Positions 3,411 to 43,122 of a stretch of DNA of 64,000 nt are shown piece by piece; the stretch's first letter is position 1, and every line of letters starts with the position of its first letter. Position numbers and translations under genes: made by a program. The DNA comes from Enterobacteria phage vB_EcoM_IME341. A model generated the notes under the pieces. The model saw only the letters and a list, made by a program, of their open reading frames with translations. It was not told where the DNA came from and did no database searches. The DNA lies in sequence record MH051917; one strand, given 5' to 3'.

Positions 3411-3426
3411 GGAGGCTTCGGCCTCC
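3411..3426 (+). other. UUCG-tetraloop hairpin GGAGGC-TTCG-GCCTCC immediately 5' of Shine-Dalgarno (no T-run)
   Basis: perfect 6-bp GC-rich stem, ttcg loop, followed by taagaggaaattATG. Confidence 0.6.
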
Positions 3427-3438
3427 TAAGAGGAAATT

Positions 3439-3636
3439 ATGTTAGGTTACCAAGCACGTGTAGTTGAAGAATATGACCAATTGGTTCTTAAAATTAATGC
3501 ACTAGAAACCTTTATTAAAGGCGGTGTTTTTGAAACTCTTGATATCCGTCAACAAGGGTTACTGATTGCCCAACTGGACGCGATGGGTGCATACGCTCAT
3601 TGTTTAGAGGTTCGTATTTCTTATTTCGGTGAGTAA
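3439..3636 (+). CDS. hypothetical protein
   Basis: 65-aa ORF with strong SD (gaggaaattATG). Confidence 0.4.
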   Translation: MLGYQARVVEEYDQLVLKINALETFIKGGVFETLDIRQQGLLIAQLDAMGAYAHCLEVRISYFGE

Positions 3637-3637
3637 A

Positions 3638-3937
3638 ATGATTAATTACCTGAATGTCGGTGAACGTGATATCAAGATTTCTAATTTGCGTGGGTTCCAT
3701 AAAGCGGGTACTGTTTATTGTGCTAAGCTCGTTAAGCATCCTGGCGATGTTCATTACGCTTTTTTAGAATGCGATGAGGTGGTCGAAGGTGAATTTCCTT
3801 TAGCGGATTCTGATACTTTAGAACCCGACGACCGAATTTATTACGGTGAACTTCATATTCGAGGCATTTATGGTGAAGACGAACCCGGGACTACTCCGAT
3901 TGGCAGCGATGCCGACATTTACCCTGAAGACATCTGA
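3638..3937 (+). CDS. hypothetical protein
   Basis: ATG at 3638 right after previous stop; track ORF starts at GTG 3629. Confidence 0.4.
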   Translation: MINYLNVGERDIKISNLRGFHKAGTVYCAKLVKHPGDVHYAFLECDEVVEGEFPLADSDTLEPDDRIYYGELHIRGIYGEDEPGTTPIGSDADIYPEDI

Positions 3938-3950
3938 TTTAACAGGTGAA

Positions 3951-4427
3951 ATGAAGGTCAAGATTAAGGATACCGTATTGTATTCCTTAAGCCAAGACCC
4001 GTCCCAAGATAAGAAAGAAGTATTAACTCGGTGTGTCATTGCAACGTATGCCGAGTACATGGTTGCTGATTGGTTGAAAGGATACGTTAACAGTGGTCTG
4101 GAAGACCATGACGACCCTTATACCTATGCATGGGATGTTTTAGCTCATCCTATGTATTGTGGACTACGTGTAGAGGTCAAGACCCATCAGTCGGATTCTA
4201 AGTGGATTTCCTGTACTACAGGATACTCTGGTGACTTCCCTTATGGAACAGGGATTAACCTGGGTCCGCTCTTGAATCATAAAGTTGCAGACTGTATAAT
4301 CATATTCGACACTTCAGTAAATGGGGCAGGCGACGTCCTGTTCACTCCTAAGTTCTCTGGCGACAGAGAAGCCATCAAAAAGCTGGTCCGTAAGAGCAAT
4401 TACAACGGCTGGTATCTCGCCTTATAA
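3951..4427 (+). CDS. hypothetical protein (occupies denB region of T4 map but no nuclease motif recognised)
   Basis: ATG 3951 with SD aggtga; alternative in-frame ATG at 3909. Confidence 0.4.
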   Translation: MKVKIKDTVLYSLSQDPSQDKKEVLTRCVIATYAEYMVADWLKGYVNSGLEDHDDPYTYAWDVLAHPMYCGLRVEVKTHQSDSKWISCTTGYSGDFPYGTGINLGPLLNHKVADCIIIFDTSVNGAGDVLFTPKFSGDREAIKKLVRKSNYNGWYLAL

Positions 4428-4439
4428 TTTAAAATAAGT

Positions 4440-4469
4440 GTTTACATACACCATGGATGGTGTTACTAT
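4440..4469 (+). promoter_or_regulatory. T4-type early promoter (GTTTAC -35, TACTAT -10)
   Basis: GTTTAC 4440-4445, TACTAT 4464-4469, spacer 18. Confidence 0.55.
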
Positions 4470-4497
4470 CTTCCTATCAACTAATGAGGAGAACAAA

Positions 4498-4764
4498 ATG
4501 GATATCAAATTGTATTACGCTAAACACAAAGTTACAGGTATGGTTGTTGCCGCTATGTATGATGCATCGGGTGAAGGTGATGATGTTACTACAGAGTTAT
4601 CTCTTTCTGAATGTAAATTTCTCCGTCCTTTGGTTGCATCAAAGGAAGATTTACAAAAACTTATCGACGGTAAACTAGATAATGTTGACGGCATAGATAT
4701 TCTTTATGACCTCCGCACTGCATTGTACAGGGGATTGATTGAGATAAAAGAGGTGGTGTTTTGA
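4498..4764 (+). CDS. hypothetical protein
   Basis: ATG 4498 after SD aatgaggag; 88 aa. Confidence 0.45.
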   Translation: MDIKLYYAKHKVTGMVVAAMYDASGEGDDVTTELSLSECKFLRPLVASKEDLQKLIDGKLDNVDGIDILYDLRTALYRGLIEIKEVVF

Positions 4765-4854
4765 GTAGCAAAACGTGGTGCCTTATTTGGATGGCCTGTA
4801 TCCCAGTGATTTGCGTATGTTTTAGTTTATTGTTGTGGAAATTGGCATAAATCA

Positions 4855-4906
4855 GTATACATCTCCATTAGACATGATATTATAGACCTATCAACTAATG
4901 GAGATG
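4855..4906 (+). promoter_or_regulatory. early promoter embedded in stem-loop (PeSL-type)
   Basis: GTATAC 4855-4860, TATTAT 4878-4883; perfect 11-bp inverted repeat catctccatta (4860-4870) / taatggagatg (4896-4906). Confidence 0.55.
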
Positions 4907-4909
4907 ATT

Positions 4910-5020
4910 ATGAAAAATTTACTTAAAGCAATTTGGAACATGTTTGTGTTGTTAATGGTATTGAGCATTTTCCCAATCGTTTTTATGATTGACCATGTAC
5001 GTGTATTCTTTAACTTCTGA
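4910..5020 (+). CDS. small hydrophobic peptide (36 aa)
   Basis: short ORF MKNLLKAIWNMFVLLMVLSIFPIVFMIDHVRVFFNF downstream of promoter; below track length cutoff. Confidence 0.25.
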   Translation: MKNLLKAIWNMFVLLMVLSIFPIVFMIDHVRVFFNF

Positions 5021-5030
5021 GGAAAATATT

Positions 5031-5243
5031 ATGAAACTTTTTAAAGATGTTGCAGTTGGTGAGAGCTTTGTATTACATAATGGTCAACAACTGATTCGCA
5101 TTTCTCCTTTGCAAGTCGGGACCGAATTACAACCTGTTAATGCTACAGACCTTTACGATTCAACTAAGCGCTTTTGTGTAGGCCCCAGTGTACAGTGCCT
5201 TACCGTTGATGAACTGATGGCTATTTCTGTTGACGCTGAATAA
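5031..5243 (+). CDS. hypothetical protein
   Basis: ATG 5031 after SD tgaggaaaa; track ORF begins at TTG 4989. Confidence 0.4.
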   Translation: MKLFKDVAVGESFVLHNGQQLIRISPLQVGTELQPVNATDLYDSTKRFCVGPSVQCLTVDELMAISVDAE

Positions 5244-5253
5244 GGAAATTATC

Positions 5254-5598
5254 ATGTCTAAAATCTTTTTTGGTAATGCTAAGGTAATGTTCTTTAAACA
5301 ACTCAGCCTTCAGGATGCATCGGTGGCATTCAATCAAAGTATGATTCCTGGCGTAGATTCAAAAATTATGACGAGTGCTGATTTCGTTTTTGTTCAAGAC
5401 CCGGAAACGGGCTTTTATCGGTTCATTAAATTTCGTATGAGTATGGACCCGTATTATCATAGCGGCTATTATGTGAGTTATGAAAATGTTATCAAAGAAC
5501 TACATGATACTTACGGACAGGCTTTGAACCCACTGAACAAGGTTTATAATGCTACCTTTTATACAAGCGGATTTATTTTAGAACAGCTACAAAAATAG
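5254..5598 (+). CDS. hypothetical protein
   Basis: ATG 5254 after SD aaggaaa; 114 aa. Confidence 0.45.
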   Translation: MSKIFFGNAKVMFFKQLSLQDASVAFNQSMIPGVDSKIMTSADFVFVQDPETGFYRFIKFRMSMDPYYHSGYYVSYENVIKELHDTYGQALNPLNKVYNATFYTSGFILEQLQK

Positions 5599-5634
5599 TT
5601 TACAACCTCGAGAATCATGTTATAATGGTTCTCG
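5598..5634 (+). promoter_or_regulatory. early promoter with -10 inside short hairpin
   Basis: GTTTAC 5598-5603, TATAAT 5621-5626, spacer 17; stem cgagaa (5609-5614) / ttctcg (5629-5634). Confidence 0.6.
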
Positions 5635-5675
5635 TTGACTGGATAACAAAACATTAATCTACTGAGGAAATTGAT

Positions 5676-6125
5676 ATGAATACTTATATGACTCGCCGTA
5701 ACGTTCTGTCTGCTGGTGCTACTACTGTTGCTTATGTTAAGAATGGTGAATACCAAAATGGTAAACCTTCTAAAGAAATCTCTGCTCAGCCAGGCTTCTA
5801 CTTCTTTGTTAAAGGTGGAGCTGATTCTCGTGTCGTAGCGGCTCGTTTTTATGTCGGTAATCAACGTTCTGCTCAAGGTCTTGATGGAATCGTGGCTAAC
5901 ATTCGTAAGAAACGTTCTCAATCAGCTCGCACTATGGCAGTGAACGGTGTGGTGTATGAAGTTCTTTATGTACCGGCTTCTAAAATGAAACCTCTGACTA
6001 CCGGTTTTGGTAAGGGTCAAATTGCAATGGCTTTCACTCGCAATCATAGTTCCGATCTCCAGACACTGGAAGAAATGAACCGCATGTTGGCTGATAACTT
6101 TAAATTCATTCTGCAGGCTTACTAA
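5676..6125 (+). CDS. ndd: Ndd nucleoid disruption protein
   Basis: 149 aa; [45 protein letters not shown] matches recalled T4 Ndd. Confidence 0.85.
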
Positions 6126-6298
6126 TGAAAGCTCTATTTGTAATGGGTTACCTATTAGTTTTAGCCTTATTCACAGTGACCGGAGCCTTTATGGCTTTAG
6201 GTCTACCTCTTAATGATAATGTGGCTGTCGTTATGTGTGTAGGTGGTGGATTTATTTGTTTTGAACGTTTATGCAAAATGTGTGGTGTGTATGAGTAA
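6125..6298 (+). CDS. small membrane protein (57 aa)
   Basis: hydrophobic ORF, ATG overlaps ndd stop (TAATG); below track cutoff. Confidence 0.35.
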
Positions 6299-6368
6299 TT
6301 TCCATAATGAACATGTGATGCAGTTCTATCGTAACAATCTTAAAACCAAAGGCGTCTTCGGACGCTAA
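6291..6368 (+). CDS. stp: Stp peptide (activator of host PrrC anticodon nuclease / anti-restriction peptide)
   Basis: 25-codon ORF translating [25 protein letters not shown], matching recalled T4 Stp. Confidence 0.7.
6352..6365 (+). other. UUCG hairpin GCGTC-TTCG-GACGC overlapping stp 3' end, immediately 5' of next SD
   Basis: 5-bp stem, ttcg loop, followed by taatgaggaaaatATG. Confidence 0.5.
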
Positions 6369-6378
6369 TGAGGAAAAT

Positions 6379-6540
6379 ATGATTATCCTAGTTTTTATTG
6401 AACTTATTATGGCTATTGTCTGTTCAGTTTGCTTCTTTTTAGGCGTGTGGACCCCTGGTCCGATATTCTTAAGTTTTCTGTTTATTGGCTGGATTCTTTC
6501 TACTTCTGTCGGTTTACTTAAGATGATTAAAAATGATTAA
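6379..6540 (+). CDS. small membrane protein (53 aa; ac-like position)
   Basis: hydrophobic ORF with SD aatgaggaaaa; T4 ac maps between stp and 52. Confidence 0.35.
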   Translation: MIILVFIELIMAIVCSVCFFLGVWTPGPIFLSFLFIGWILSTSVGLLKMIKND

Positions 6541-6673
6541 GAAAATCTTGGGCTACTTGTTAGCCCTTGCTGCTTTATTAGTAGCACTGTATTATGGAGT
6601 AATGTTCGGACTTATCCAAGTTGTGCTTTTTATTTCCGATGTTATTATGGCTATTCATTCACTAGTATGGTAA
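6533..6673 (+). CDS. small membrane protein (46 aa)
   Basis: hydrophobic ORF overlapping previous stop. Confidence 0.3.
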   Translation: MIKKILGYLLALAALLVALYYGVMFGLIQVVLFISDVIMAIHSLVW

Positions 6674-6677
6674 AATT

Positions 6678-8006
6678 ATGGAATTAACATCTCGTGGTTT
6701 AAAAAGTATTATCGACAACGAAGCATTGGCTTATGCAATGTATACTGTCGAAAACCGAGCCATTCCAAATATGATTGATGGCTTTAAACCTGTACAACGT
6801 TTTGTAGTTGCTCGTTGTCTTGATATGGCTCGTGGTAATAAAGAAAAATTCCACAAACTGGCTTCTATTGCTGGTGGCGTGGCCGACCTTGGATATCACC
6901 ACGGTGAAGGTTCTGCTCAGGAAGCAGGGGCTTTGATGGCTAACACATGGAACAACAACTATCCATTGTTAGACGGTCAAGGTAACTTCGGTTCTCGATT
7001 GGTTCAAAAGGCTGCAGCCTCTCGTTATATCTTTGCACGTATTGGAAGTAACTTTGCAAAAGTTTATAAGGACACAGAATATGCTCCGGTTCATGCGGAT
7101 GTCGAACATAAGCCACCGGCTTTTTATCTGCCTATTATTCCTACTGTTCTTCTTAATGGCGTTTCCGGTATTGCAACTGGTTATGCAACTAATATTCTTC
7201 CTCATAGTTTTGATTCTGTTAAGAAAGCTGTATTGCAAGTTCTTCAGGAAAAACGCGTAACCAAACCCAAAGTGGCTTATCCTGAATTCCGCGGTGAAGT
7301 TGTTGAAATTGAACCAGGTAGTTATGAGATTCGTGGAACGTATAAGTTCACATCCCGAACCCAAATGCATATCACGGAAATTCCTTATAAGTACGACCGT
7401 GAAACGTATGTGGCTAAGATATTGGACCCTCTGGAAGACAAAGGGTATATCACATATGACGATGACTGTGACGAGAACGGTTTCGGCTTCAAGGTTAAGA
7501 TTCGTAAAGAATACGAATTGCCTACTGATGAAGATAAGAAACACGAAAAACTCATGAAGGACTTCGGGTTAATCGAACGTCGTTCACAAAACCTGACTGT
7601 CATTAATGAGAAAGGTAAACTTAAGGTTTACGAAGATGCAGTTGAACTGATTCGTGATTTCGTTGAGGTCCGTAAGACCTTTGTACAGAAACGTATTGAT
7701 GGTAAAATCATCGAAACTGAAGAAGCTTTCAAACTGGCATTGGCTAAAGCCACATTTATCAAAGATGTTATTGATGGTGTAGTGGTTATCCAAGGTAAGA
7801 CTCGCAAGGTTTTAACCGAAGAATTGGCTAGTAATAAAGTCTATGGCGAATACGCTGATAAACTAGTGGCCATGAACATTTTCCATATCACATCCGATGA
7901 AGCCAAGAAACTGGCCCTCGAAGCCAAAGCTAAGAAAGAAGAGCACCAATACTGGAAAACCACTGATGTGGTAACTGAGTATGTTAAAGATTTGGAGGCT
8001 CTATGA
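6678..8006 (+). CDS. 52: DNA topoisomerase II medium subunit gp52 (GyrA-like)
   Basis: 442 aa, same length as T4 gp52; N-terminal GyrA-like motifs (AYAMYTVENRAIPNMIDGFKPVQRF). Confidence 0.9.
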   Translation: MELTSRGLKSIIDNEALAYAMYTVENRAIPNMIDGFKPVQRFVVARCLDMARGNKEKFHKLASIAGGVADLGYHHGEGSAQEAGALMANTWNNNYPLLDGQGNFGSRLVQKAAASRYIFARIGSNFAKVYKDTEYAPVHADVEHKPPAFYLPIIPTVLLNGVSGIATGYATNILPHSFDSVKKAVLQVLQEKRVTKPKVAYPEFRGEVVEIEPGSYEIRGTYKFTSRTQMHITEIPYKYDRETYVAKILDPLEDKGYITYDDDCDENGFGFKVKIRKEYELPTDEDKKHEKLMKDFGLIERRSQNLTVINEKGKLKVYEDAVELIRDFVEVRKTFVQKRIDGKIIETEEAFKLALAKATFIKDVIDGVVVIQGKTRKVLTEELASNKVYGEYADKLVAMNIFHITSDEAKKLALEAKAKKEEHQYWKTTDVVTEYVKDLEAL

Positions 8007-8107
8007 GCCTTGGAGTCGAGTTCTTGTTACTCTGTATCTTTGCTGTTATTCTAGGCCTGGCAACAGGCTTAGCTATAGGTTTAATAGCAGCCCACTTTAA
8101 AAAGTAA
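8003..8107 (+). CDS. small membrane peptide (34 aa)
   Basis: MSLGVEFLLLCIFAVILGLATGLAIGLIAAHFKK; ATG overlaps gp52 stop. Confidence 0.3.
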   Translation: MSLGVEFLLLCIFAVILGLATGLAIGLIAAHFKK

Positions 8108-8129
8108 GGAACCTTCGGGTTCCTTTTTT
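8108..8129 (+). terminator. rho-independent terminator
   Basis: ggaacc-ttcg-ggttcc hairpin followed by T6. Confidence 0.7.
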
Positions 8130-8147
8130 GGGTTTAGTGAAAAAAGT

Positions 8148-8176
8148 GTTTACTTCTGCTTTAAACATGATACTAT
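8148..8176 (+). promoter_or_regulatory. T4-type early promoter
   Basis: GTTTAC 8148-8153, TACTAT 8171-8176, spacer 17; followed by conserved tatagacctatcaa. Confidence 0.6.
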
Positions 8177-8214
8177 AGACCTATCAAAACAACAGAGTGA
8201 AATGGAGATACAAA

Positions 8215-8436
8215 ATGAAAACCTTAAATATTAATTCTTTTTTCTACAATGCTAATACCGATCATGCAATGTTCTTTGATTGTGATTTAGATACTTATAT
8301 CCATGTATGGGGTGTTAAGTCAGATAAAGTGGTTGTTAAGAAAAATTTAAAAACCGGTAATGGTCGTGGTCAAGCTAAAATTTCTTCCAAGAAAGTTGTT
8401 GAAGCTTATGTTGATTATGTTAAAAGCGCAATTTAA
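8215..8436 (+). CDS. hypothetical protein
   Basis: ATG 8215 after SD ggagata; track ORF starts at GTG 8197. Confidence 0.4.
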   Translation: MKTLNINSFFYNANTDHAMFFDCDLDTYIHVWGVKSDKVVVKKNLKTGNGRGQAKISSKKVVEAYVDYVKSAI

Positions 8437-8447
8437 TTAAAAAATTA

Positions 8448-8482
8448 TATACAAAGGTCTATGATAATGTTATTATAGACCT
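8448..8482 (+). promoter_or_regulatory. early promoter in stem-loop (weak -35)
   Basis: TATTAT -10 at 8471-8476; inverted repeat aggtctat (8455-8462) / atagacct (8475-8482). Confidence 0.45.
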
Positions 8483-8511
8483 ATCAAATAAATGGTTATC
8501 GGAGATACAAA

Positions 8512-9144
8512 ATGTCTAAAATTACTTATATCATCAAAGCTTCTGAAGACGTCCTGAATGAAAAAACTGCTTCGATCTTAGTACATATCATCAAGCATAA
8601 CTTCATCACTTCAGGCGAAGTCCGTGAAGCCCTGAGTGAGCATTTTAGTGCTGCGGTAGTTAACTCTAACATCGGTGTATTGATTAAGAAAGGGTTCATC
8701 GAAAAATCTGGTGATGGTTTAGTGGCTACAGGTGAAGCAATGGACTTGGTTCAAAAAGCTGCTGACCTGTTCGCTTCTGAAAATGCTCCAGAGATGTTGG
8801 AAAAACGTAAAACACGCAGTTCACGTGGTGTTACTCCTGAAATGGTAACACTGGCTGATGAAGTTAAAGCTTTATTAGAAGACCGCATCGAGATTCGTGA
8901 AATTGCTGAAAACCGTAGCAACCTTGAAGTTCGATTCGCCAAACGTACCAATGGTATTCGTCAAATTGAAGTCCGTCGTGATGGCATGATGCGCATCTTC
9001 GGTTATAATATGACTGATAAAGAAAAACAAGTGTTTACTTCCTTGAATCTTGATGTTAAGATTAAGACTGGTGGTAAGAATACTTATATCGACTTCCAAA
9101 ACGTATCATCTGAAGTTATCAAAACCGTAACCAATGCAATTTAA
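8512..9144 (+). CDS. motA: MotA middle-transcription activator
   Basis: 210 aa; MSKITYIIKAS.DVLNEKTA..VVNSNIGVLIKKG..EKSGDGL matches recalled T4 MotA. Confidence 0.85.
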   Translation: MSKITYIIKASEDVLNEKTASILVHIIKHNFITSGEVREALSEHFSAAVVNSNIGVLIKKGFIEKSGDGLVATGEAMDLVQKAADLFASENAPEMLEKRKTRSSRGVTPEMVTLADEVKALLEDRIEIREIAENRSNLEVRFAKRTNGIRQIEVRRDGMMRIFGYNMTDKEKQVFTSLNLDVKIKTGGKNTYIDFQNVSSEVIKTVTNAI

Positions 9145-9162
9145 CTGACTGAGGAAATTATT

Positions 9163-9492
9163 ATGAACAAGCTGAATATTGTTAATGAACTTCGTCGTTG
9201 TGCAGAACCTACTCAAGAAGGTTGGGACATTTGGTACCACGGTGCTTATCTCGGCACTATTGTTAAGATTAAAGCAGGTAAATACTTAATCATCCGTGGT
9301 GGTTCTGAAGCTTCTATGGGAATCCGCAAGAACTTTATGGCAGCAATCAGCACCTTTGTTCCAGCCGCTTATGAAGTCTATAAAGCCGACTATAAAGAAT
9401 ACCAGGAATCACAACCAGTTATTCGTTCGATTGGTGTTAATAAAGCTCAACAGAAAACTTTATGGCAGCGTGTTAAAGGATGGTTCAAATGA
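9163..9492 (+). CDS. hypothetical protein
   Basis: 109-aa ORF with SD gaggaaatt. Confidence 0.45.
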   Translation: MNKLNIVNELRRCAEPTQEGWDIWYHGAYLGTIVKIKAGKYLIIRGGSEASMGIRKNFMAAISTFVPAAYEVYKADYKEYQESQPVIRSIGVNKAQQKTLWQRVKGWFK

Positions 9493-9827
9493 TTCCTATG
9501 GAACTTAACTGGGACGGCGAAGGCCATTCTCTTAAATTGATTGAAGAACAACGTAATGATTGGGATGAACGCGTAGCTCTGGTAAATGGTATTAAGAAAA
9601 TTTATCAACTTAATCTCCAGATTGATAACGTTCATCTTGAATTTGGTATGCAGTTATTGCGATTTCTTGAGATTATTTTTATAGAAAAAGTAAATATAAC
9701 TTCGTATGGCGAAGGCCAAACAGTTTATATTAAATTATCGTCCTATTATAAAGGTGATTTAATTGAAACCACCACTAAAATTCAAGAATTTGCTAAAGAT
9801 AACGGTCATAAGGTGATTTTCAAATGA
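9489..9827 (+). CDS. hypothetical protein
   Basis: ATG 9489 overlapping previous stop (ATGA). Confidence 0.4.
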
Positions 9828-10312
9828 ATCCATTAAAAGGTAAAGAATTATCCTTTAAAGACCGAATGGCTTTATTAGATAAAGCTCTTTCTCGTGAGAC
9901 GCCCGAAAGTCTAGCGGCTAAATTACAGGCCTATGGCGATTACACTGAATATACGGAAGAGGATGTTTTAGAAGAGGTTCCTGAAATCTGTTGGCAGATT
10001 GCTCATTGGAACAATAATGAAAAATATCAACGTCGAATTGTGTGTGCAGCCAACCGCTTTAAGTTAAAAGATGGTGGGACTCTGGTTATTCCTGGCGCTC
10101 GTCATTATTCTAAAGATATGGCAGAAGTTCTTGACCAGGTAAGTGATAAACTTGTGTCAGACCATGTTTGTGGTGATGACCAAGGATTTATTGACCAATA
10201 TTCAAACTATTGGACTCGCGAAGAAGCAATGATTATTGCGACTTATGCTGGACAAGTTCGTATTGAACGTGGTGGTAGTGAAAAAGAACTTTACTCTGAG
10301 GACCTTTACTAA
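9824..10312 (+). CDS. hypothetical protein
   Basis: 162-aa ORF, SD aaggtga. Confidence 0.45.
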
Positions 10313-10593
10313 TGAATCTTAAACAACTCCAGATTGATGCAATCGAAGCCCATATCAACCATATTAAACGTCTGAACGTTATGCTGGAAGACAACTGGGG
10401 AACTTATGTCAACCAACCCGCGTGGGATGCATTGGACCATGAATATATAAAGAATATTAGTTCTAAGACAATCCATGGGAATATGGAAGGGTTGAAGCCA
10501 TTCCTACGTGATATGTATATCGCAACTAATAAAGAAATTATTAGCTCTCTTGAATATCAATTAAGGAAATTACGTGAACAATCTGGTAGCTAA
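10312..10593 (+). CDS. hypothetical protein
   Basis: 93-aa ORF overlapping previous stop. Confidence 0.45.
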   Translation: MNLKQLQIDAIEAHINHIKRLNVMLEDNWGTYVNQPAWDALDHEYIKNISSKTIHGNMEGLKPFLRDMYIATNKEIISSLEYQLRKLREQSGS

Positions 10594-10682
10594 GCACGAT
10601 TTCAATAAGGCGGCTGTCCATAAGGATAAGAAGAAAAACTTTAAAGAATCTAATCGCAAACAGAAACATAAGGGTAAAGGCT

Positions 10683-10964
10683 ATGATTACTAAACTCCAA
10701 ACATGCGAAGCAACTGAACTGGTTATTCTCATTGACGAGCTTTTTAAAATTCATGCTGCTGTTGGTGACGAAATCTATGCAGAAATTCTTTGTGATTTGG
10801 ATAGCTGTTTTGGTTATATCCAACCGGAATATACAATTCGATTCTCTTGTGAACGCCCAGGTTATGCCAAGGTAGTTTTTGGCTCCGGCCTAGATGAAGA
10901 ACAAGTATTAAGAGAAATCCAAGAAGAAATTGATGATTTCGGTTTAGAAGATTATATTGATTGA
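10683..10964 (+). CDS. acidic protein, possibly Arn-like DNA mimic (anti-McrBC)
   Basis: 93 aa with strongly acidic C-terminus; position between motA and asiA where T4 arn lies; no sequence-level confirmation. Confidence 0.3.
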   Translation: MITKLQTCEATELVILIDELFKIHAAVGDEIYAEILCDLDSCFGYIQPEYTIRFSCERPGYAKVVFGSGLDEEQVLREIQEEIDDFGLEDYID

Positions 10965-10974
10965 GGAGCAATCT

Positions 10975-11133
10975 ATGAGTCATAACTTAGAGAATACCGT
11001 AACAGGCATGCGTACGCGTGAGCAGGAGTGCTTTGAGGAATTCCTGGGAGCTGATTTTAAGTTCCAGGAACCAATAGAAGAGATGTATCAGGAATATGTT
11101 AAAAAGAACGAAGGACATGTTTACAATCCCTAA
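10975..11133 (+). CDS. small hypothetical protein (52 aa)
   Basis: ATG 10975 after SD gaggagc; below track cutoff. Confidence 0.25.
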   Translation: MSHNLENTVTGMRTREQECFEEFLGADFKFQEPIEEMYQEYVKKNEGHVYNP

Positions 11134-11147
11134 GGATATGTTAGTAT
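11119..11147 (+). promoter_or_regulatory. T4-type early promoter upstream of asiA
   Basis: GTTTAC 11119-11124, TAGTAT 11142-11147, spacer 17. Confidence 0.55.
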
Positions 11148-11188
11148 AGCCTTATCAGATAATGACGTACTGAATTGAAGAGAATATT

Positions 11189-11464
11189 ATGACTAAAATT
11201 GAAATCGTTTCCGAAATTGCCACTATTGTTTCCATTTTGATTAAAACGGATTGTGAAGACATCATGCAACGTCGTGATGAGTTTATTGCCTTTTTGAATG
11301 AGTTGGGTATTCGTAATGAACATGGAAAGGAACTTAATGGACTATCTTTTAATAAACTCTTTAAGTCTTTAACTGAAGATGAACGTGATACTCTTATCGA
11401 GCAATTTAATGAAGGGTATGAAGATATACACCGTTACCTAATGATGTATACCTCCAATTTTTAA
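11189..11464 (+). CDS. asiA: AsiA anti-sigma70 factor
   Basis: 91 aa; IVSEIATIVSILIK..FIAFLNE..LTEDERDTLIEQFNEGYEDIHRYLMMYT matches recalled T4 AsiA. Confidence 0.85.
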   Translation: MTKIEIVSEIATIVSILIKTDCEDIMQRRDEFIAFLNELGIRNEHGKELNGLSFNKLFKSLTEDERDTLIEQFNEGYEDIHRYLMMYTSNF

Positions 11465-12114
11465 CGAGTTCGACCTAATGTCCTTCCGGCTTGACCGCAC
11501 ATAGACGAAAGTCTAGGAAATCCTAAATCCGGTTTGATATCATACCAGTACAACGATATCGAGCCGGCATAGATGTTATCCAAATTAAAAAACGGGCATG
11601 AAAACATATACGTGAATTGTGTTTTCTTCTTTGTAGGAAGGAATACAGTTTCGGTACTTGATTCAAAATAGTTCCCGTTAACTCCCGCCATATATTCTAC
11701 TGACGTTTTGTCAATTGGAAACCCTCCCGTATTTTTTGCGTCTACCGTTTCCGGTAATTTACCCTCGTAAGCCACCATATCCACAAAATAATTCATGTTG
11801 GTTGGTCTAAAAGAATATATTGCTGTGAAGTCTGCGCCTGAAGAAGAATGCACTATTCGGAGCTGCTCGATAGCCGCAATTTTAAATCTATTGTCCTGGT
11901 CTTGTCTAATCATTTCAGTATAAGAGGCATAAGTTGTCTCTTTGTAAAAGTTTAGAATATACTCGCCTTTATACCAAACCAGTGCCATAAAGAACAATAA
12001 TACCACGACTAGGACCCGGGAAAAAACTACTTTCCCGGAAGAAGTATCTTTAAAAATTCTATCAAGAAGTCCAAAAAGTAGGTCTGATAATGAAAATCCT
12101 ACTTTTGGTTCCAT
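11461..12114 (-). CDS. t: holin T
   Basis: 217 aa; LFGLLDRIFKD..GKV..SRV..VVLLFFMA..W and C-terminal NLDNIYAG..LYWY match recalled T4 holin. Confidence 0.9.
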   Translation of the reverse strand: MEPKVGFSLSDLLFGLLDRIFKDTSSGKVVFSRVLVVVLLFFMALVWYKGEYILNFYKETTYASYTEMIRQDQDNRFKIAAIEQLRIVHSSSGADFTAIYSFRPTNMNYFVDMVAYEGKLPETVDAKNTGGFPIDKTSVEYMAGVNGNYFESSTETVFLPTKKKTQFTYMFSCPFFNLDNIYAGSISLYWYDIKPDLGFPRLSSMCGQAGRTLGRTR

Positions 12115-12132
12115 ACTTTTCTCCTTTAAAGA

Positions 12133-12140
12133 TATTTATA
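12133..12140 (-). promoter_or_regulatory. late promoter TATAAATA upstream of t
   Basis: plus-strand tatttata = TATAAATA on minus strand, about 20 nt upstream of holin ATG. Confidence 0.6.
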
Positions 12141-12151
12141 ATACAGAAGTA

Positions 12152-12940: not shown

Positions 12941-12952
12941 AATAAATCCTTA

Positions 12953-12966
12953 GGGCCCGAAGGCCC
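12953..12966 (-). other. UUCG hairpin between gp37 stop and gp38 SD
   Basis: minus-strand gggcc-ttcg-ggccc followed by taaggatttattATG of gp38. Confidence 0.5.
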
Positions 12967-12971
12967 TTTTC

Positions 12972-16841: not shown

Positions 16842-16849
16842 AATGCCTC

Positions 16850-17553: not shown

Positions 17554-18678
17554 TTAATATTTTTCTTTAAATTCTTGAACAAATACTTTACCTGCATTAC
17601 CAGATGATTTGTCATTCAATTGTGCAATAACATTACCCATTGAACGGGTTTCAGTACCATAGCTCATACGAATACCATTAACACCAATTTCAGCGGATTT
17701 AGGAGTATCTTCAGGTCTAGCTATTTCACCAAACATAACATTCCTAACACCTCCTACTCCGCCTGAGACAGTTTTTCTACAATATAATGTAAAACCAATA
17801 GCATTCGGCGGAACTTCTATTACGCGCTCAAAAGACATCCATGCACCTGCCGGTGGAGAGCCCGCTCCTACAGGAATATTGATATCAGTGGACTGAATCA
17901 TTTCCTGGCCATTAAAAAATCGTATGGACATCTGGGTCGTTCCTAAATCTTTTAAAGCCTGGTCGTAGGTCATTTGAAATTTGAGATAAAAGAAATCTCC
18001 AGGAACCATATTATAACCGGCACAAGGAGTTATAGTGGATTCGGTAGGAAACCTTTTAATTTCTTGAGTAGCTCCACTATAGTAAGTGTTTTCATCTTCA
18101 ATGACTCTAACAGGGAACCCAGTTCCTCCTACATCATTAAAGTTGTCATAAACGACTTCTAATGGGGTGGAAACGTCTTCTACCAAAACGCCGTCGTTAT
18201 AAAGCACGTGTTCCATTACTATAGCATTCCTTCCTGAAACATAAAAAGCTGAATAAGAAGTATCCACTTTATCAATGAGCCACTTATCCGGGAACGCTGT
18301 AGAACCAGAAGCTCTAAACCAATCAATTAATACCTGTGAGGCGTTTAATTTGCCGGAAGAAATAAAGCAAACAATTCTCCCGGCAGGTATAGAAGAAATA
18401 TAAGTTATAAACGCTTGGGAAATAACATCATGGTCTTTGGTAAAGGCATATGATTTTGAAGACACTATTGTGTTATTGGTCGGGTCTATTTCAACCAAAT
18501 TTAGACCAGATTGGAAATTCTGAGGACCGAAGTCCTCATCTTGAAATTTGATATAAGCCTTTTTAGTGGACTTAGTACAGCTCCCTGCTATACTAAGTTT
18601 ATAACTAACGGCATTATTTTCAGATAGTACAGGAATTTGAACGTAATCTTGTCCAAATTCGGCCATAAATCTTTCCAT
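17554..18678 (-). CDS. 35: gp35 tail fibre hinge protein
   Basis: 374 aa between 34 and 36 (T4 gp35 about 372 aa); synteny. Confidence 0.7.
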   Translation of the reverse strand: MERFMAEFGQDYVQIPVLSENNAVSYKLSIAGSCTKSTKKAYIKFQDEDFGPQNFQSGLNLVEIDPTNNTIVSSKSYAFTKDHDVISQAFITYISSIPAGRIVCFISSGKLNASQVLIDWFRASGSTAFPDKWLIDKVDTSYSAFYVSGRNAIVMEHVLYNDGVLVEDVSTPLEVVYDNFNDVGGTGFPVRVIEDENTYYSGATQEIKRFPTESTITPCAGYNMVPGDFFYLKFQMTYDQALKDLGTTQMSIRFFNGQEMIQSTDINIPVGAGSPPAGAWMSFERVIEVPPNAIGFTLYCRKTVSGGVGGVRNVMFGEIARPEDTPKSAEIGVNGIRMSYGTETRSMGNVIAQLNDKSSGNAGKVFVQEFKEKY

Positions 18679-18686
18679 ATTACCTC

Positions 18687-25865: not shown

Positions 25866-25891
25866 GGGAAGACTTCGGTCTTCCCTTTTTG
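25866..25891 (+). terminator. rho-independent terminator after gene 32
   Basis: gggaagac-ttcg-gtcttccc hairpin followed by T5. Confidence 0.75.
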
Positions 25892-29859: not shown

Positions 29860-29916
29860 GGACTGAATTTCATTCTATAAATATCAGTCCATGCTTAACA
29901 GGTTCTATGATAGAAT
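29860..29916 (+). promoter_or_regulatory. promoter region upstream of nrdA: hairpin with TATAAATA in loop plus MotA-box-like middle promoter
   Basis: stem ggactga (29860-29866) / tcagtcc (29884-29890); TATAAATA 29876-29883; TGCTTaA box 29892-29898, 12-nt gap, TAGAAT 29911-29916. Confidence 0.35.
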
Positions 29917-29946
29917 AATTGTAGAACCTAACATATTGAGGAAATT

Positions 29947-33395: not shown

Positions 33396-33400
33396 GGAAT

Positions 33401-33414
33401 GGGGCTTCGGCCCC
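33401..33414 (+). other. UUCG hairpin GGGGC-TTCG-GCCCC immediately upstream of denA
   Basis: 5-bp GC stem with ttcg loop between nrdB stop and denA ATG. Confidence 0.5.
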
Positions 33415-33422
33415 TTATTGCT

Positions 33423-33836
33423 ATGAAAGAAATCGCAGACGAATTTAGCTTTATCAAGTACGTCACCCTAGAACTCCAAGATGACGCCACCATAGCTCCA
33501 CTCACAGTACCAAATAAACAAAATGTCATATATGCTATAGCGGTTGATGATATACTAGTCTACATCGGGAAGACTAAAAATCTTCGTAAGCGCATCAACT
33601 ACTACCGAACCGCTATTAATCGTAAGGACCAAACGTCAGATTCGACTAAGTCCATTCTGATTCATGAAGCATTAATGGCAGGTAAAAAGGTAGAGTTCTA
33701 TGCACGGCAGTGCTTTAATCTGTCGATGACTAACGAACTTGGAACTATGTCAGTTGAGACCATGTCTCTTGAAGAGCCAATGTTCATAAAGAAATTTAAT
33801 CCACCTTGGAATACCCAACATAGGATAAAGCAATGA
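33423..33836 (+). CDS. denA: endonuclease II (GIY-YIG family)
   Basis: MKEIADEFSFIKY..NVIYAIAVDDILVYIGKTKNLRKRINYYRTAINRKD closely matches recalled T4 EndoII. Confidence 0.85.
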   Translation: MKEIADEFSFIKYVTLELQDDATIAPLTVPNKQNVIYAIAVDDILVYIGKTKNLRKRINYYRTAINRKDQTSDSTKSILIHEALMAGKKVEFYARQCFNLSMTNELGTMSVETMSLEEPMFIKKFNPPWNTQHRIKQ

Positions 33837-36269: not shown

Positions 36270-36303
36270 TTTACAAACTCTTGGGAGCAGAGTATAATGC
36301 TCC
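36269..36303 (+). promoter_or_regulatory. early promoter with -10 in hairpin
   Basis: GTTTAC 36269-36274, TATAAT 36293-36298; stem ggagca (36284-36289) / tgctcc (36298-36303). Confidence 0.55.
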
Positions 36304-36333
36304 TACGGATTATAAAAAATTGAGGAAATTATT

Positions 36334-41741: not shown

Positions 41742-41751
41742 AATCGAGGAG

Positions 41752-41821
41752 CCGTCGAATTGTCTGATTATCGATTTACGAATCGGTATGTTTTAGAAGT
41801 ACCGCCCCGACAATTTTACGG
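41752..41821 (+). other. long-range imperfect stem-loop immediately 3' of rIII
   Basis: ccgtcgaattgtc (41752-41764) pairs with gacaattttacgg (41809-41821), about 12 of 13 positions paired including one GU; encloses an inner cgatt/aatcg hairpin. Confidence 0.35.
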
Positions 41822-41849
41822 TGTACCTCTTGAATGTATTTTGTACTAT
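41821..41849 (+). promoter_or_regulatory. T4-type early promoter driving a ~155-nt leader
   Basis: GTGTAC 41821-41826, TACTAT 41844-41849, spacer 17. Confidence 0.45.
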
Positions 41850-42004
41850 CACGCGTCAGAAAAAGGTTATCTGTCTAAGCCGTGGTTGGTATGATGACGA
41901 GGTTTATGGTTATCCTGTCGTTAAATATCCGAAACCTATGTTCCCCTTGAGGGCTTGCGCAGGCAACGCCAATAAGTCCTGCATTCTAATTTAAGAGATT
42001 TAAA

Positions 42005-42166
42005 ATGGCTAAGAAAGAAGTTAAAGTAGTTGACGGTACCTCTAAACGCGCTGGTTACAAGCGTGCGTCCAACAAGCGTATCGATCAGGTAGTTGATAAG
42101 CTTCAAGCTCGTGCTCGTGCGGTATTGCGTGCAGATGCTGCTTGCTTTGGTAAGCCTCAGGCATAA
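42005..42166 (+). CDS. small basic protein (53 aa)
   Basis: MAKKEVKVVDGTSKRAGYKRASNKRIDQVVDKLQARARAVLRADAACFGKPQA; lysine/arginine-rich; followed by strong terminator; below track cutoff. Confidence 0.35.
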   Translation: MAKKEVKVVDGTSKRAGYKRASNKRIDQVVDKLQARARAVLRADAACFGKPQA

Positions 42167-42171
42167 GTTAT

Positions 42172-42196
42172 GGGACTCTTCGGAGTCCCATTTTTG
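42172..42196 (+). terminator. rho-independent terminator
   Basis: gggactc-ttcg-gagtccc hairpin followed by T5. Confidence 0.75.
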
Positions 42197-42217
42197 TTTC
42201 TAAATCTTTAAAAAAGG

Positions 42218-42246
42218 GTGTACATCTCCGGTAGGCATGATACTAT
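42218..42246 (+). promoter_or_regulatory. T4-type early promoter (cassette copy 1)
   Basis: GTGTAC 42218-42223, TACTAT 42241-42246, spacer 17. Confidence 0.6.
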
Positions 42247-42292
42247 AGACCTGTACCAAATAATACGAAAACAAACTGGAGAATAAAATGAA
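42244..42292 (+). repeat. 49-nt direct repeat copy 1 (promoter -10 through start codon)
   Basis: tatagacctgtaccaaataatacgaaaacaaactggagaataaaatgaa identical to 42687-42735. Confidence 0.85.
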
Positions 42293-42656
42293 AATCAATC
42301 TTAACTCATATATCAAATGTAAAGACCACGACGGTTACAAAGCAATCGAAACTAAAGAAATGCAATGGCGCTTGTACAAAGAACAATTTGAATTTGTAGG
42401 TTGCATGACTCCGGAAGGTCCTTCTGATGACTTCTCTTGGAAAATTATGGTAACAAACTTTTTTACCGGTGATACCTACGAACTGAAAACTATCGTAATC
42501 GGTAAGATTCGTTGTAAGACCTATGAAGATGAAGAAACCGGTTATTCTGAAGATGTTACATGGTACCAAAACGGTCGCACCACTGCTGATGATTTGATTG
42601 AAAAAATGAAAGCCAAAGGTGAATTAAATTTAGATAATTGGATTAAAGTTGCATAA
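42288..42656 (+). CDS. hypothetical protein
   Basis: 122 aa; contains CMTP motif shared with the next ORF. Confidence 0.5.
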   Translation: MKINLNSYIKCKDHDGYKAIETKEMQWRLYKEQFEFVGCMTPEGPSDDFSWKIMVTNFFTGDTYELKTIVIGKIRCKTYEDEETGYSEDVTWYQNGRTTADDLIEKMKAKGELNLDNWIKVA

Positions 42657-42660
42657 AACA

Positions 42661-42700
42661 GTTTACTTTGGTACAGGTTGTGTTATTATAGACCTGTACC
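42661..42700 (+). promoter_or_regulatory. early promoter in perfect stem-loop (cassette copy 2)
   Basis: GTTTAC 42661-42666, TATTAT 42684-42689, spacer 17; 9-bp stem ggtacaggt (42670-42678) / acctgtacc (42692-42700). Confidence 0.65.
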
Positions 42701-42735
42701 AAATAATACGAAAACAAACTGGAGAATAAAATGAA
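42687..42735 (+). repeat. 49-nt direct repeat copy 2
   Basis: identical to 42244-42292. Confidence 0.85.
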
Positions 42736-43096
42736 CTACAACAACTTCGAACGTAAATATGTTTCTAACGGTATCCCAGGTTCTTCTGAAGTTATTTGCC
42801 TGTGGAAACACAACAACGGCACGGTGTGCGAAATCGAACAGTGCATGACTCCTAACTACGTTTATATGCGCTTTGAAAATGGTATTACGGTTTCAATCAC
42901 AATGGAAGGTTCTACTTTTAAAATCGCTTTAGATGACGATTTCCGTCAACGTGATTTAGGTACCCATCCTTGCTGGAACGGTGTTAATCGTAAGCTTCTG
43001 GTTAAAACCTGGATTCGTCACATCCTGAGCAACCGAGCTAAACCTGAACACCTAGAAGCAATCTTTGATGTAGTTCTGAACGAATTCGATATCTAA
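42731..43096 (+). CDS. hypothetical protein
   Basis: 121 aa; CMTP motif; possible distant paralog of previous ORF. Confidence 0.5.
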   Translation: MNYNNFERKYVSNGIPGSSEVICLWKHNNGTVCEIEQCMTPNYVYMRFENGITVSITMEGSTFKIALDDDFRQRDLGTHPCWNGVNRKLLVKTWIRHILSNRAKPEHLEAIFDVVLNEFDI

Positions 43097-43106
43097 TCTT
43101 AAAAAT

Positions 43107-43122
43107 GGAGGCTTCGGCCTCC
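43107..43122 (+). other. UUCG hairpin GGAGGC-TTCG-GCCTCC, identical to the one at 3411-3426
   Basis: same 16-nt sequence, again immediately 5' of SD tttgaggaaaat. Confidence 0.6.

Follow-up and report, generated by a model that had tools for sequence, protein, structure and literature searches.

Two distant intergenic junctions of one phage genome carry the same hairpin letter for letter, which raises the question of whether the exact sequence matters or only the structure that it forms. The window, that is, the whole stretch of 64,000 nt analysed here (Enterobacteria phage vB_EcoM_IME341, record MH051917), belongs to a Dhakavirus, a JS98/IME08-like T4-type phage. Its plus strand carries exact copies of the 16-mer GGAGGCTTCGGCCTCC at 3411-3426 and 43107-43122, with an expectation of 0 in shuffles; this identity, and the position of the first copy after rIIB, are as the initial annotation gave them. 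That annotation joined the two copies with three similar hairpins in a single family set by its place 5' of ribosome-binding sites, and proposed that they are mRNA processing or stability elements which set the 5' ends of the cistrons that follow, or else devices that couple or uncouple translation.

The cap is far more common than these five sites suggest. C(TTCG)G hairpins with stems of at least 5 bp were found 11 times in the window against 0.39 expected (300 dinucleotide shuffles), comprising ten strong C(UUCG)G hairpins and one weak antisense match. Among window hairpins with a dG of -7 or lower the TTCG loop was seen ten times in sense and never in antisense orientation, no other loop occurred more than twice, and all ten strong hairpins lie on the transcribed strand:

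S1, 3411..3426, plus strand: GGAGGC-UUCG-GCCUCC at the rIIB/denB.1 junction, dG -10.8.
S2, 6351..6366, plus strand: GGCGUC-UUCG-GACGCU, encoding the end of the 25-aa stp ORF (6291-6368).
S3, 8106..8125, plus strand: AAGGAACC-UUCG-GGUUCCUU with U-tract, 3' of gene 52.
S4, 25866..25885, plus strand: GGGAAGAC-UUCG-GUCUUCCC followed by UUUUU, 3' of gene 32 (stop 25847-25849).
S5, 33401..33414, plus strand: GGGGC-UUCG-GCCCC at the nrdB/denA junction, between an SD-like AAGGA and the ATG.
S6, 42170..42191, plus strand: 9-bp CUUCGG hairpin followed by UUUUGUUU, 3' of rIII.
S7, 43107..43122, plus strand: 16-mer hairpin identical to S1, at the 30.7/30.6 junction.
S8, 46892..46907, plus strand: AAGGCC-UUCG-GGCCUU, then UUCU, overlapping the alt.1 stop codon.
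S9, 12952..12967, minus strand: AGGGCC-UUCG-GGCCCU at the gene 37/gene 38 junction.
S10, 18521..18538, minus strand: UGAGGAC-UUCG-GUCCUCA, 140 nt inside gene 35 (17554-18678).

The GC-clamped hairpins listed earlier besides the two copies (6351-6366, 33401-33414 and 12967-12952 on the minus strand) are real, and the other half of the family had been missed (8106-8125, 25866-25885, 42170-42191, 46892-46907 and 18538-18521). Nor is it one family by position, as the same cap is also found in terminators, between an SD and its AUG, and in a coding region. S3, S4, S6 and S8, each a hairpin with a U-tract, are Rho-independent terminators as judged from their sequence, and an early promoter comes next at three of them: an early-promoter-like GTTTAC-N17-GATACTAT begins 23 nt 3' of S3 and 17 nt 3' of S4 (z -2.86), and the -10 motif shared with these two lies at 42238-42252 past S6 (z -4.65). 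S3 is terminator-like on both strands in a terminator scan. T4 carries homologues of S6 (130360-130339) and of S8 (125564-125541, 3' of alt.1).

In S1, S2, S7 and S9 the order is stop codon, hairpin, SD and AUG, with the SD (GAGG or AAGGA) 0-3 nt past the stem and the start codon 11-15 nt past it. The S1 hairpin begins 8 nt past the rIIB stop (3400-3402) and precedes GAGG (3430-3433) and the ATG of denB.1 (3439); S7 begins 10 nt past the stop of the 30.7 homologue (43094-43096) and precedes GAGG (43126-43129) and the ATG of 30.6 (43138), between genes for proteins that are 91% (30.7) and 84% (30.6) identical to those of T4. S2 consists of the final stp codons (GVFGR) and the stop, ahead of GAGG at 6370-6373 and an ATG at 6379, while S9 begins 4 nt past the gene 37 stop (12972-12974), with AAGGA directly 3' and the gene 38 ATG at 12940. 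The proximity to ribosome-binding sites is largely explained by very short intergenic spacers (36 nt between rIIB and denB.1). S5 stands alone in its layout: its AAGGA (33394-33398) overlaps the nrdB stop (33393-33395) upstream of the hairpin, no SD is present 3' of it, and a U-rich spacer (TTATTGCT in the DNA, UUAUUGCU in the transcript; T in 5 of 8) leads to the denA ATG at 33423. The earlier statement that an SD and start codon follow shortly therefore holds at 3411, 6351, 43107 and 12967 but not at 33401; likewise the absence of a T-run stands at 3411, 6351 and 12967, fails at 33401, and at 43107 is qualified by a stretch of just TTT.

Comparison with relatives indicates that structure is retained while sequence drifts. 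At the S1 junction 10 orthologous IMG/VR loci, and T4 as well, keep a hairpin whose stem shows compensatory changes, and S1 and S7 taken together are 95.6% paired, with double changes in five of six pairs (0/500 shuffles). In relatives GGAGG/CCUCC becomes GGGGC/GCCCC, GGGGAC/GUCCCC or GGGAGC/GCUCCC; at the S7 junction GGGAGC, GGGGC-UUCG, GGGGC-GAAA and GGGGC-UUUG are found, with GGGGC-UUCA in T4, and loops at orthologous junctions interchange among the stable tetraloops UUCG, UCCG, CUUG, GAAA, GCAA and GUAA. In T4, hairpins stand at the junctions of S1, S2, S5, S7 and S9 in addition to S6 and S8, with different loops at 30.7/30.6 (UUCA) and nrdB/denA (GCAA). The S5 layout, TAA(A)GG-hairpin-U-rich-ATG, recurs in 33 loci and T4 (94% paired, double changes in 4/6 pairs, matched by none of 500 shuffles), and the S9 stem reads AGAGGGC/GCCCUCU in relatives. 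S2 is found wherever stp is, and in T4 at 165525-165510, one locus (L193) lacking both; its conservation is confounded with that of the Stp protein sequence encoded there. The five hairpins first listed are not canonical intrinsic terminators, as the initial annotation had it; their sense-only occurrence, compensatory stem changes and exchange of stable tetraloops mark them as conserved elements at the RNA level.

S10 encodes D-E-D-F-G-P-Q and has no U-tract. Its stem takes four variants in the Dhakavirus clade, 100% paired with double changes in 3 of 7 pairs (1/500 shuffles), part of which alter amino acids. That a hairpin which is neither followed by a U-tract nor a ribosome-binding-site device has been kept despite such changes argues for an RNA-barrier role across the family.

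The exact identity of S1 and S7, which is kept in five related genomes, could instead mark a specific site, either for a protein or RNase binding GGAGGCUUCGGCCUCC sequence-specifically or for PeSL-like recombination. In a second subclade, too, the stems at the two junctions resemble each other, so that a stem common to both in two subclades could hint at conversion or recognition, and recombination inside PeSL-cassette stem-loops is documented for RB49 and phi1 (PMC2839356). A search of other genomes, however, turned up the 16-mer in at least 120 unrelated viral contigs (IMG/VR) in varied contexts, with a T-run next in 64 of 125 occurrences in other phages and an SD without T-run in 16, which deprives the identity of the weight first placed on it. 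The loops differ between the two sites (UUCG vs GAAA) in genomes 2706795394 and 2706795401, UCCG is found at S1 in another (L008), the flanks have nothing in common beyond an A-rich tract and the usual GAGGAAA SD, and with 39.7 kb between the direct repeats, recombination across them would remove essential genes. The S5 14-mer GGGGCTTCGGCCCC serves at S1 and S7 in relatives. We rejected a shared recognition site given the independent origin of the 16-mer in many unrelated phages; a specific site is largely refuted on this comparison and barely credible. By the same sequence comparison, the identity is convergence within a tiny sequence space (G-rich arm, CUUCGG, C-rich arm).

A translational role, through insulation of the SD, stacking on the SD/anti-SD helix, or coupling to or uncoupling from the upstream cistron, would draw on the proximity of the SD, which begins 0-5 nt past the stem in the window and close relatives and 6-8 nt past it in T4 and a more distant group; this fairly narrow spacing leaves room for such a role. 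Within the 16-mer, moreover, GGAGG makes a perfect SD and CCUCC, which could toggle, mimics an anti-SD; alternative pairing with the true SD is possible (CCUC-CUAA-GAGG at S1, CCUC-CUUU-GAGG at S7), and in the predicted fold part of the S7 SD is paired with an A-tract/UUU extension of that hairpin. That a translation initiation region can include such a hairpin is shown by S5 and by the hairpins of T4 genes 38 and 25 (PMC3014915). Yet in a simple model the accessibility predicted for initiation regions shifts in no uniform direction between wild type and 3'-arm mutant (0.64/0.65, 0.49/0.46, 0.46/0.30, 0.39/0.56, 0.43/0.45). A specific role in coupling, or in setting downstream 5' ends, is not supported. 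The GGAGG/CCUCC stem is swapped for others in relatives, among which stop-codon and SD distances also differ; S10 lies within an ORF, promoters rather than ribosome-binding sites follow S3, S4 and S6, and at the junction preceding ac no hairpin is present where stp is absent (L193). We consider this reading distinctly unlikely.

Hairpins without a U-tract might also be weak intrinsic terminators, attenuators or pause sites that act on RNA polymerase and lower downstream transcription. The clear terminators S3, S4 and S6 bear the same cap, S1 is followed by TTTCTTAT in more distant relatives (L011-13), UUU follows S7 and UUAUUGCU follows S5, and a T-run accompanies half of the 16-mer occurrences elsewhere. 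RB49 intergenic polyG/polyC stem-loops cut reporter expression like a strong terminator (PMC2839356), suggesting that attenuation may count for more than we assume, and 30-50% of transcripts are terminated at one T4 hairpin whose U-tract is short (PMC2790892). Against this, the 3' flanks of S1 (UAAGAGG), S2 (AAUGAGG), S9 (AAGGAUU) and S10 (GAAUUUC) are not U-tracts, and their absence is conserved among close relatives. E. coli RNA polymerase terminates poorly at hairpins that lack a U-tract. As a general account this is unlikely, if less so than a translational one.

Could the hairpins rather act on the opposite strand, as one-way terminators of antisense transcription whose U-tract is the complement of the upstream A-rich tract? 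The terminator scan flags the antisense of S1 (GGAGGCCGAAGCCTCC GTTTAGTTTT), S2 and S9, ATTTTTAA comes next on the S7 antisense, and Belin and colleagues are said to have described antisense transcription of T4 early regions in 1987. The stable loops (UUCG, GAAA, GCAA) nevertheless lie without exception on the sense strand, and nothing stands out in their complements; upstream A-richness is about what intergenic sense strands show in general, and no T-run accompanies the T4 gene 38 hairpin in antisense. We find this very improbable.

The explanation we prefer, in which we place about even confidence, is that these are ordinary T4-type C(UUCG)G hairpins, of which those without U-tract serve as mRNA punctuation, the identity of the 16-mers being convergent. 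They act in mRNA and not in DNA, selection favouring a short GC-rich stem with an unusually stable tetraloop and leaving the exact stem sequence free. At S1, S2, S7 and S9 the hairpin would punctuate polycistronic mRNA by stalling 3'-to-5' exonucleases or capping the end left by an endonucleolytic cut, so that the upstream segment might outlive or outnumber the downstream one, perhaps with slight transcriptional attenuation added. S5 most likely shrinks a 24-nt SD-AUG distance to approximately 10 nt, comparable to the T4 gene 38/25 hairpins, and also looks like a leaky terminator.

Segmental mRNA stability conferred by intercistronic stem-loops is familiar from the E. coli malE-malF REP and the Rhodobacter puf operon, and 5'-terminal stabilising stem-loops (ompA) were reportedly described by Emory and colleagues in 1992. 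Shared with these is a stable hairpin between cistrons of one transcript without a U-tract, and by analogy protection of adjacent mRNA from exonucleases or 5'-end-dependent RNase E would be expected; unlike REP elements the stems here are much shorter and depend on tetraloop stability, in a role that is putative.

In T4-type intergenic cassettes, polyG-loop-polyC stem-loops act as terminators or attenuators (PMC2839356). S3, S4 and S6 resemble the PeSL terminator/promoter cassettes (Arbiol et al., 2010, PMC2839356; Comeau et al., 2014, PMC4122927) in their G-rich/C-rich stem-loop and U-tract, with GTTTAC-N17-GATACTAT 17-23 nt past S3 and S4 and the -10 motif alone past S6, whereas S1, S2, S7 and S9 lack the U-tract and, with only 11-15 nt from stem to start, leave no space for a promoter. 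For T4 genes 38 and 25, section 29 of PMC3014915 describes hairpins that serve as split-SD devices; S5 is alike in having the SD 5' and the AUG 3' of a stable hairpin. The gene 38 hairpin, also CUUCGG, sits at the same junction as S9, although at S1, S2, S7 and S9 the SD lies 3' of the hairpin at normal spacing and no hairpin is needed to join it to the AUG. In T4, intergenic GGAG locked in UUCG-capped stem-loops is RegB-resistant, and by its sequence the 16-mer, with GGAG in a UUCG-capped early intergenic stem, would resemble this class (16 structured sites; Durand et al., 2006, PMC1702504), with GGGG in place of GGAG in this phage's relatives.

The family, more broadly UNCG/GNRA-capped, is long known and not new. 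CUUCGG hairpins of varied function are abundant in T4 intergenic regions according to the passages on them in PMC8948821 (citing Tuerk et al., 1988, PNAS 85:1364), which give the loop, closing pair and stem range (X)2-8/(Y)2-8 found here; as far as these passages and PMC1702504 go, the mRNA stability or processing role already raised in the initial annotation is the best fit. Intergenic sense-strand placement is likewise shared, with hairpins at orthologous T4 junctions, and nothing essential differs: UUCG is found at more junctions in this region (10 sense-strand UUCG hairpins against 8 in T4 95-169 kb in the same scan), and this phage also carries a clade-specific copy inside gene 35.

The window is 93-97% identical to the Dhakavirus genomes C6, AnYang, IME08 and Bp7, JS98-like members of the T4 family, and its plus strand is the early-gene strand, with the gene order rIIB, denB.1, denB, ndd, stp, ac, 52, motA onward. 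Scanning both strands of the window for TTCG-centred stems resulted in ten strong C(UUCG)G hairpins with stems of 5-9 bp, numbered here S1 to S10.

C(UUCG)G hairpins of the window
3411, plus strand: S1, rIIB/denB.1 junction
6351, plus strand: S2, 3′ end of stp
8106, plus strand: S3, hairpin with U-tract
25866, plus strand: S4, hairpin with U-tract
33401, plus strand: S5, nrdB/denA junction
42170, plus strand: S6, hairpin with U-tract
43107, plus strand: S7, 30.7/30.6 junction
46892, plus strand: S8, hairpin with U-tract
12967-12952, minus strand: S9, gene 37/38 junction
18538-18521, minus strand: S10, inside gene 35

All ten read C-TTCG-G on the sense strand, nine are intergenic or at the 3′ end of an ORF, and nearest-neighbour predictions of dG range from -8.3 to -14.7 kcal/mol. 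C(UUCG)G hairpins were observed 11 times as opposed to 0.39 times in dinucleotide shuffles, the eleventh match being weak, antisense and with a G-U pair (46033). Among perfect-stem hairpins with dG <= -7 kcal/mol, no loop other than TTCG occurs more than twice; TTCG was found ten times, always on the transcribed strand and not once on the antisense strand. Taken together, census, shuffles and strand bias indicate that the hairpin family proposed in the initial annotation is real and RNA-strand-specific, and that the list given there was incomplete. The entries on that list were confirmed: the 16-mer GGAGGCTTCGGCCTCC occurs exactly at 3411-3426 and 43107-43122, both on the plus strand, as its only two copies with none expected in shuffles, and the three other hairpins are present at 6351-6366 (plus), 33401-33414 (plus) and 12967-12952 (minus). 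Rfam covariance models gave no match at gathering score across the whole window.

Four of the ten hairpins have the full anatomy of intrinsic terminators, with the U-tracts TTTTGGG (S3), TTTTTGG (S4), TTTTGTTT (S6) and TTTTCT (S8, including two Ts of the stem); a GC-rich hairpin with at least five U in eight, as defines a Rho-independent terminator, is found at S3, S4 and S6. The sequence GTTTAC-N17-GATACTAT lies 23 nt downstream of S3 and 17 nt downstream of S4; S6 shares this -10 motif, TGATACTATAGACCT, which lies downstream of it and is preceded by GTGTAC. S3, S4 and S6 each belong to a PeSL-type cassette of terminator and early promoter (PMC2839356, PMC4122927). In early promoters (GTTTAC-N17-GATACTAT) the motif TGATACTATAGACCT makes up the -10/start region; it has 12 matches at up to three mismatches against 1.8 expected, all on the plus strand.

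Copies of the -10/start motif
8168-8182, plus strand: exact copy
25922-25936, plus strand: exact copy
26624-26638, plus strand: exact copy
42238-42252, plus strand: exact copy
4875, 8468, 42681 and others, plus strand: near copies

Several copies sit in inverted repeats with the -10 box in the loop (5609-5634, 8455-8482, 26611-26638, 27344-27369, 29900-29929, 36282-36305), and these look like PeSL-type cassettes. Elsewhere, the minus-strand segment 17523-17555 is a late-gene terminator/promoter cassette, in which the late promoter box TATAAATA, upstream of gene 36, comes directly after a terminator-like hairpin, AAGGGACC-UUAU-GGUCCCUU plus UUUGC. A perfect 10-bp palindromic hairpin at 51510-51533, AAAGGAGAGC-GUAU-GCUCUCCUUU, lies between convergent genes, is T-rich on the plus side, and is probably a bidirectional terminator.

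A different arrangement is evident at S1, S2, S7 and S9, and it is only for these four that the earlier statement that each hairpin lacks a T-run and precedes a Shine-Dalgarno (SD) sequence holds; it fails in the other contexts. Their layout is stop codon, 0-10 nt, hairpin, 0-3 nt, SD (GAGG or AAGGA), ATG, and no U-tract is present in UAAGAGGA (S1), AAUGAGGA (S2), UUUGAGGA (S7) or AAGGAUUU (S9). Their nearness to the ribosome-binding site is largely due to very short spacers, that between rIIB and denB.1 measuring 36 nt in total. No PeSL early promoter was found at any of the four, where just 11-15 nt separate stem from ATG, and a terminator scan of positions 1-20000 left S1, S2 and S9 unflagged on the sense strand (S7 lies beyond this region). 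We consider a leaky terminator or attenuator at these sites unlikely. In T4, a hairpin whose U-tract is short was measured to terminate 30-50% of transcripts (Wilson and Edgell, 2009; PMC2790892). In the antisense orientation the scan did flag S1, S2 and S9, owing to upstream A-tracts, but because it is invariably the sense strand that carries the stable loops, a terminator acting only on antisense transcripts is just a weak rival and very improbable.

Orthologous junctions were taken from IMG/VR relatives and T4. At the S1 junction, where the hairpin begins 8 nt past the rIIB stop codon and ahead of denB.1, the 16-mer occurs in five genomes including the window, GGAGGC-UCCG-GCCUCC in one, GGGGC-UUCG-GCCCC in two, GGGGA-CUUG-UCCCC in one, GGGGAC-UUCG-GUCCCC with a trailing UUUCUU in two phages that are more distant, and a weaker AAGGC-UUCG-GCC(C)UU in T4. 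At the S7 junction, between homologues of T4 30.7 and 30.6 (protein identity 91% and 84%), six genomes including the window carry the 16-mer, other relatives have GGGAGC-UUCG-GCUCCC, GGGGC-UUCG-GCCCC, GGGGC-GAAA-GCCCC or GGGGC-UUUG-GCCCC, and T4 has GGGGC-UUCA-GCCCC. When the distinct S1 and S7 sequences are aligned on the loop, 95.6% of cells pair and both-sided changes are seen in five of six pairs, which none of 500 shuffles match.

The significance attached to the repeated 16-mer did not survive a search across genomes. An exact-match scan of IMG/VR returned it from at least 120 contigs that differ widely in size and origin; among the matches listed it is followed by a T-run in 64 of 125, as a terminator core, and by an SD without a T-run in 16 of 125. 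The S5 sequence GGGGCTTCGGCCCC is found at S1 and at S7 of relatives, and in genomes 2706795394 and 2706795401 the S1 and S7 loops differ (UUCG versus GAAA). This spread, reuse and divergence argue that the duplication is convergence in a small sequence space consisting of a G-rich 5′ arm, CUUCGG and a C-rich 3′ arm. An exact repeat of a CUUCGG hairpin carries no special meaning, and a site of specific recognition or recombination, for which identity of the two copies could speak, was rejected as most improbable given the unrelated contigs that contain the 16-mer and the relatives in which S1 and S7 diverge. The S1 stem is identical to the S7 stem within each of two separate subclades (loci L004-L026), both being GGAGGC in the first and GGGGC in the second, which could reflect the small sequence space or conversion.

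S2 forms the last five codons (GVFGR) and the stop of the 25-aa Stp peptide ORF (6291-6368), and the final five codons and stop of T4 stp likewise form a CUUCGG hairpin. Stp in T4 is the activator of the host PrrC anticodon nuclease. Relatives with stp have the hairpin and those without stp lack it; the encoded peptide sequence is a confounder of this conservation. S9 is kept among relatives with compensatory changes (AGGGCC versus AGAGGGC). A CUUCGG hairpin also occupies the T4 gene 37/38 junction, though T4 gene 38 is non-homologous: gene 38 of the window (12152-12940, minus strand, 262 aa), presumably a T2-type adhesin, is unrelated to T4 gp38 (183 aa), and the junction hairpin is present with both types.

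At S5 the order of elements is reversed. Upstream of the hairpin stands AAGGA (33394-33398), which shares bases with the nrdB stop codon and is the sole SD-like sequence of the junction; downstream of the hairpin, the denA ATG (33423) comes after a U-rich spacer.

SD-hairpin-U-rich-ATG arrangement at nrdB/denA
33393-33425, window: SD, hairpin, U-rich spacer and ATG
137925-137960, T4 (NC_000866): the same arrangement

The hairpin would shorten a linear spacing of 24 nt to about 10 nt, so that S5 alone has the predicted effective spacing of a split SD (~5-11 nt); at S1, S2, S7 and S9 the SD is downstream of the hairpin. The order TAA(A)GG, hairpin, 7-9 U-rich nt and ATG is found in 33 loci and in T4, with the loops UUCG, GCAA (T4-likes), GUAA or UUUG and a longer degenerate loop (CUUAGG, CUUGAC) in two loci; pairing extends to 94% of cells, double changes affect four of the six pairs, and 0/500 shuffles match. 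This layout fits a split translation initiation region. S5 scores as terminator-like too, with a borderline U-tract (UUAUUGCU), and a low-output junction ahead of a nuclease gene would make sense. RefSeq places the start of T4 denA (144 aa) at a GTG within the hairpin, and the ORF caller likewise takes ATG 33399 in the window; the true start is more likely the conserved MKE/MKD 24 nt downstream. In-frame starts inside hairpins (ATG 33399, ATG 43105, the T4 denA GTG) are not conserved in frame across relatives and were treated as ORF-calling artefacts.

S10 lies 140 nt into gene 35 (17554-18678). Within the Dhakavirus clade it has four stem variants with 100% pairing and double changes in three of seven pairs, and some of the stem changes alter the protein (E/G, D/A/N, P/S). 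The hairpin was not found in one diverged relative nor in T4-likes, where gene 35 has just a weak CAGGA-UAA-UCCUG stem, broken in several relatives; the element is thus clade-specific.

The sense-strand RNA hairpins are under selection for stable folding as such, and because UNCG, GNRA and CUUG loops interchange, the loop is picked for stability and not for a sequence-specific partner. We suggest that S1, S2, S7 and S9 punctuate polycistronic mRNAs: they would stall 3′-to-5′ exonucleases or cap ends arising from endonucleolytic cuts, possibly with slight attenuation added, and the adjoining upstream mRNA segment would be favoured. The function of the members lacking a U-tract is inferred rather than measured, and no usable Term-seq data or transcript-end maps for T4 turned up in the literature searched. 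The initial annotation had offered mRNA processing or stability elements or, alternatively, devices for translational coupling, an interpretation reasonable in spirit and unproven. Several observations lead us to prefer mRNA punctuation over a role at the ribosome-binding site. S10 has the same build inside an ORF, lacks a U-tract and is kept at the protein's cost; the distances from hairpin to stop codon and to SD vary among relatives; and at gene 37/38 the SD is downstream of the hairpin in the window and upstream of it in T4, so the hairpin is constant and the layout of the ribosome-binding site variable. Partition-function accessibility of SD and AUG at five sites, a simple model, showed no consistent change between wild type and a 3′-arm mutant, which leans against insulation of the ribosome-binding site, and the arms of a GGAGG/CCUCC switch between SD and anti-SD are not conserved as such in relatives. 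A ribosome-binding or coupling device, such a toggle included, therefore seems improbable to us.

Beyond punctuation, the tail-fibre genes allow for a further reading. Three late promoters define the operons g34-g35 and g36-g37-g38.

Late promoters of the tail-fibre region
22626, minus strand: late promoter
17530, minus strand: late promoter
12140, minus strand: late promoter

Each operon has one hairpin without U-tract, just before or inside its last gene. Of the tail-fibre proteins, those needed in few copies are encoded by these last genes (gp35 monomer versus gp34 trimer). The coincidence of hairpin and low-copy last gene is a speculative pattern. It is conceivable, at rather low probability, that CUUCGG hairpins without U-tract are polarity elements that set stoichiometry where less downstream product is needed, through segmental mRNA stability or attenuation, with selection overriding the amino-acid sequence of gp35. 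The pairs concerned would be gp37 trimer and gp38, gp34 trimer and gp35 monomer, NrdB and the nuclease EndoII, and rIIB and the denB.1-denB nuclease unit; in gp35 the compensatory stem changes exchange E/G, D/A/N and P/S.

CUUCGG hairpins were reportedly described from T4 intercistronic regions by Tuerk and colleagues in 1988. All ten hairpins of the window share with that class a C-G-closed UUCG with complementary flanks of 2-8 nt (G-U allowed), and they lie on the mRNA strand of a T4-type phage, mostly between genes. PMC8948821, which summarises Tuerk et al. (1988), gives (X)2-8 CUUCGG (Y)2-8 as common in phage intergenic regions, with T4 especially rich and functions varied. The same scan applied to T4 (95-169 kb) found eight sense-strand CUUCGG hairpins and two weak antisense ones, and the orthologous T4 junctions carry such hairpins too. 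The hairpins reported here are a feature already on record, seen again in a phage closely related to the one from which it was first described, and they add little by way of discovery; they illustrate how a single cap serves in terminators, as punctuation within operons and in a split ribosome-binding site. PolyG-loop-polyC stem-loops of T4-type intergenic cassettes lower downstream reporter expression (Arbiol et al., 2010; PMC2839356). Sixteen intergenic GGAG motifs of T4 are RegB-resistant and lie in stable stem-loops, often UUCG-capped (Durand et al., 2006; PMC1702504). The 16-mer has exactly their configuration, its GGAG being paired in the stem of the predicted fold and not single-stranded and followed by A-rich sequence, as a RegB site would be. 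At T4 genes 38 and 25 a hairpin draws the SD and a far-off AUG together, from 22 to 5 nt and from 27 to 11 nt, respectively (PMC3014915), and that of gene 38 is the CUUCGG hairpin which we located at T4 159625-159644.
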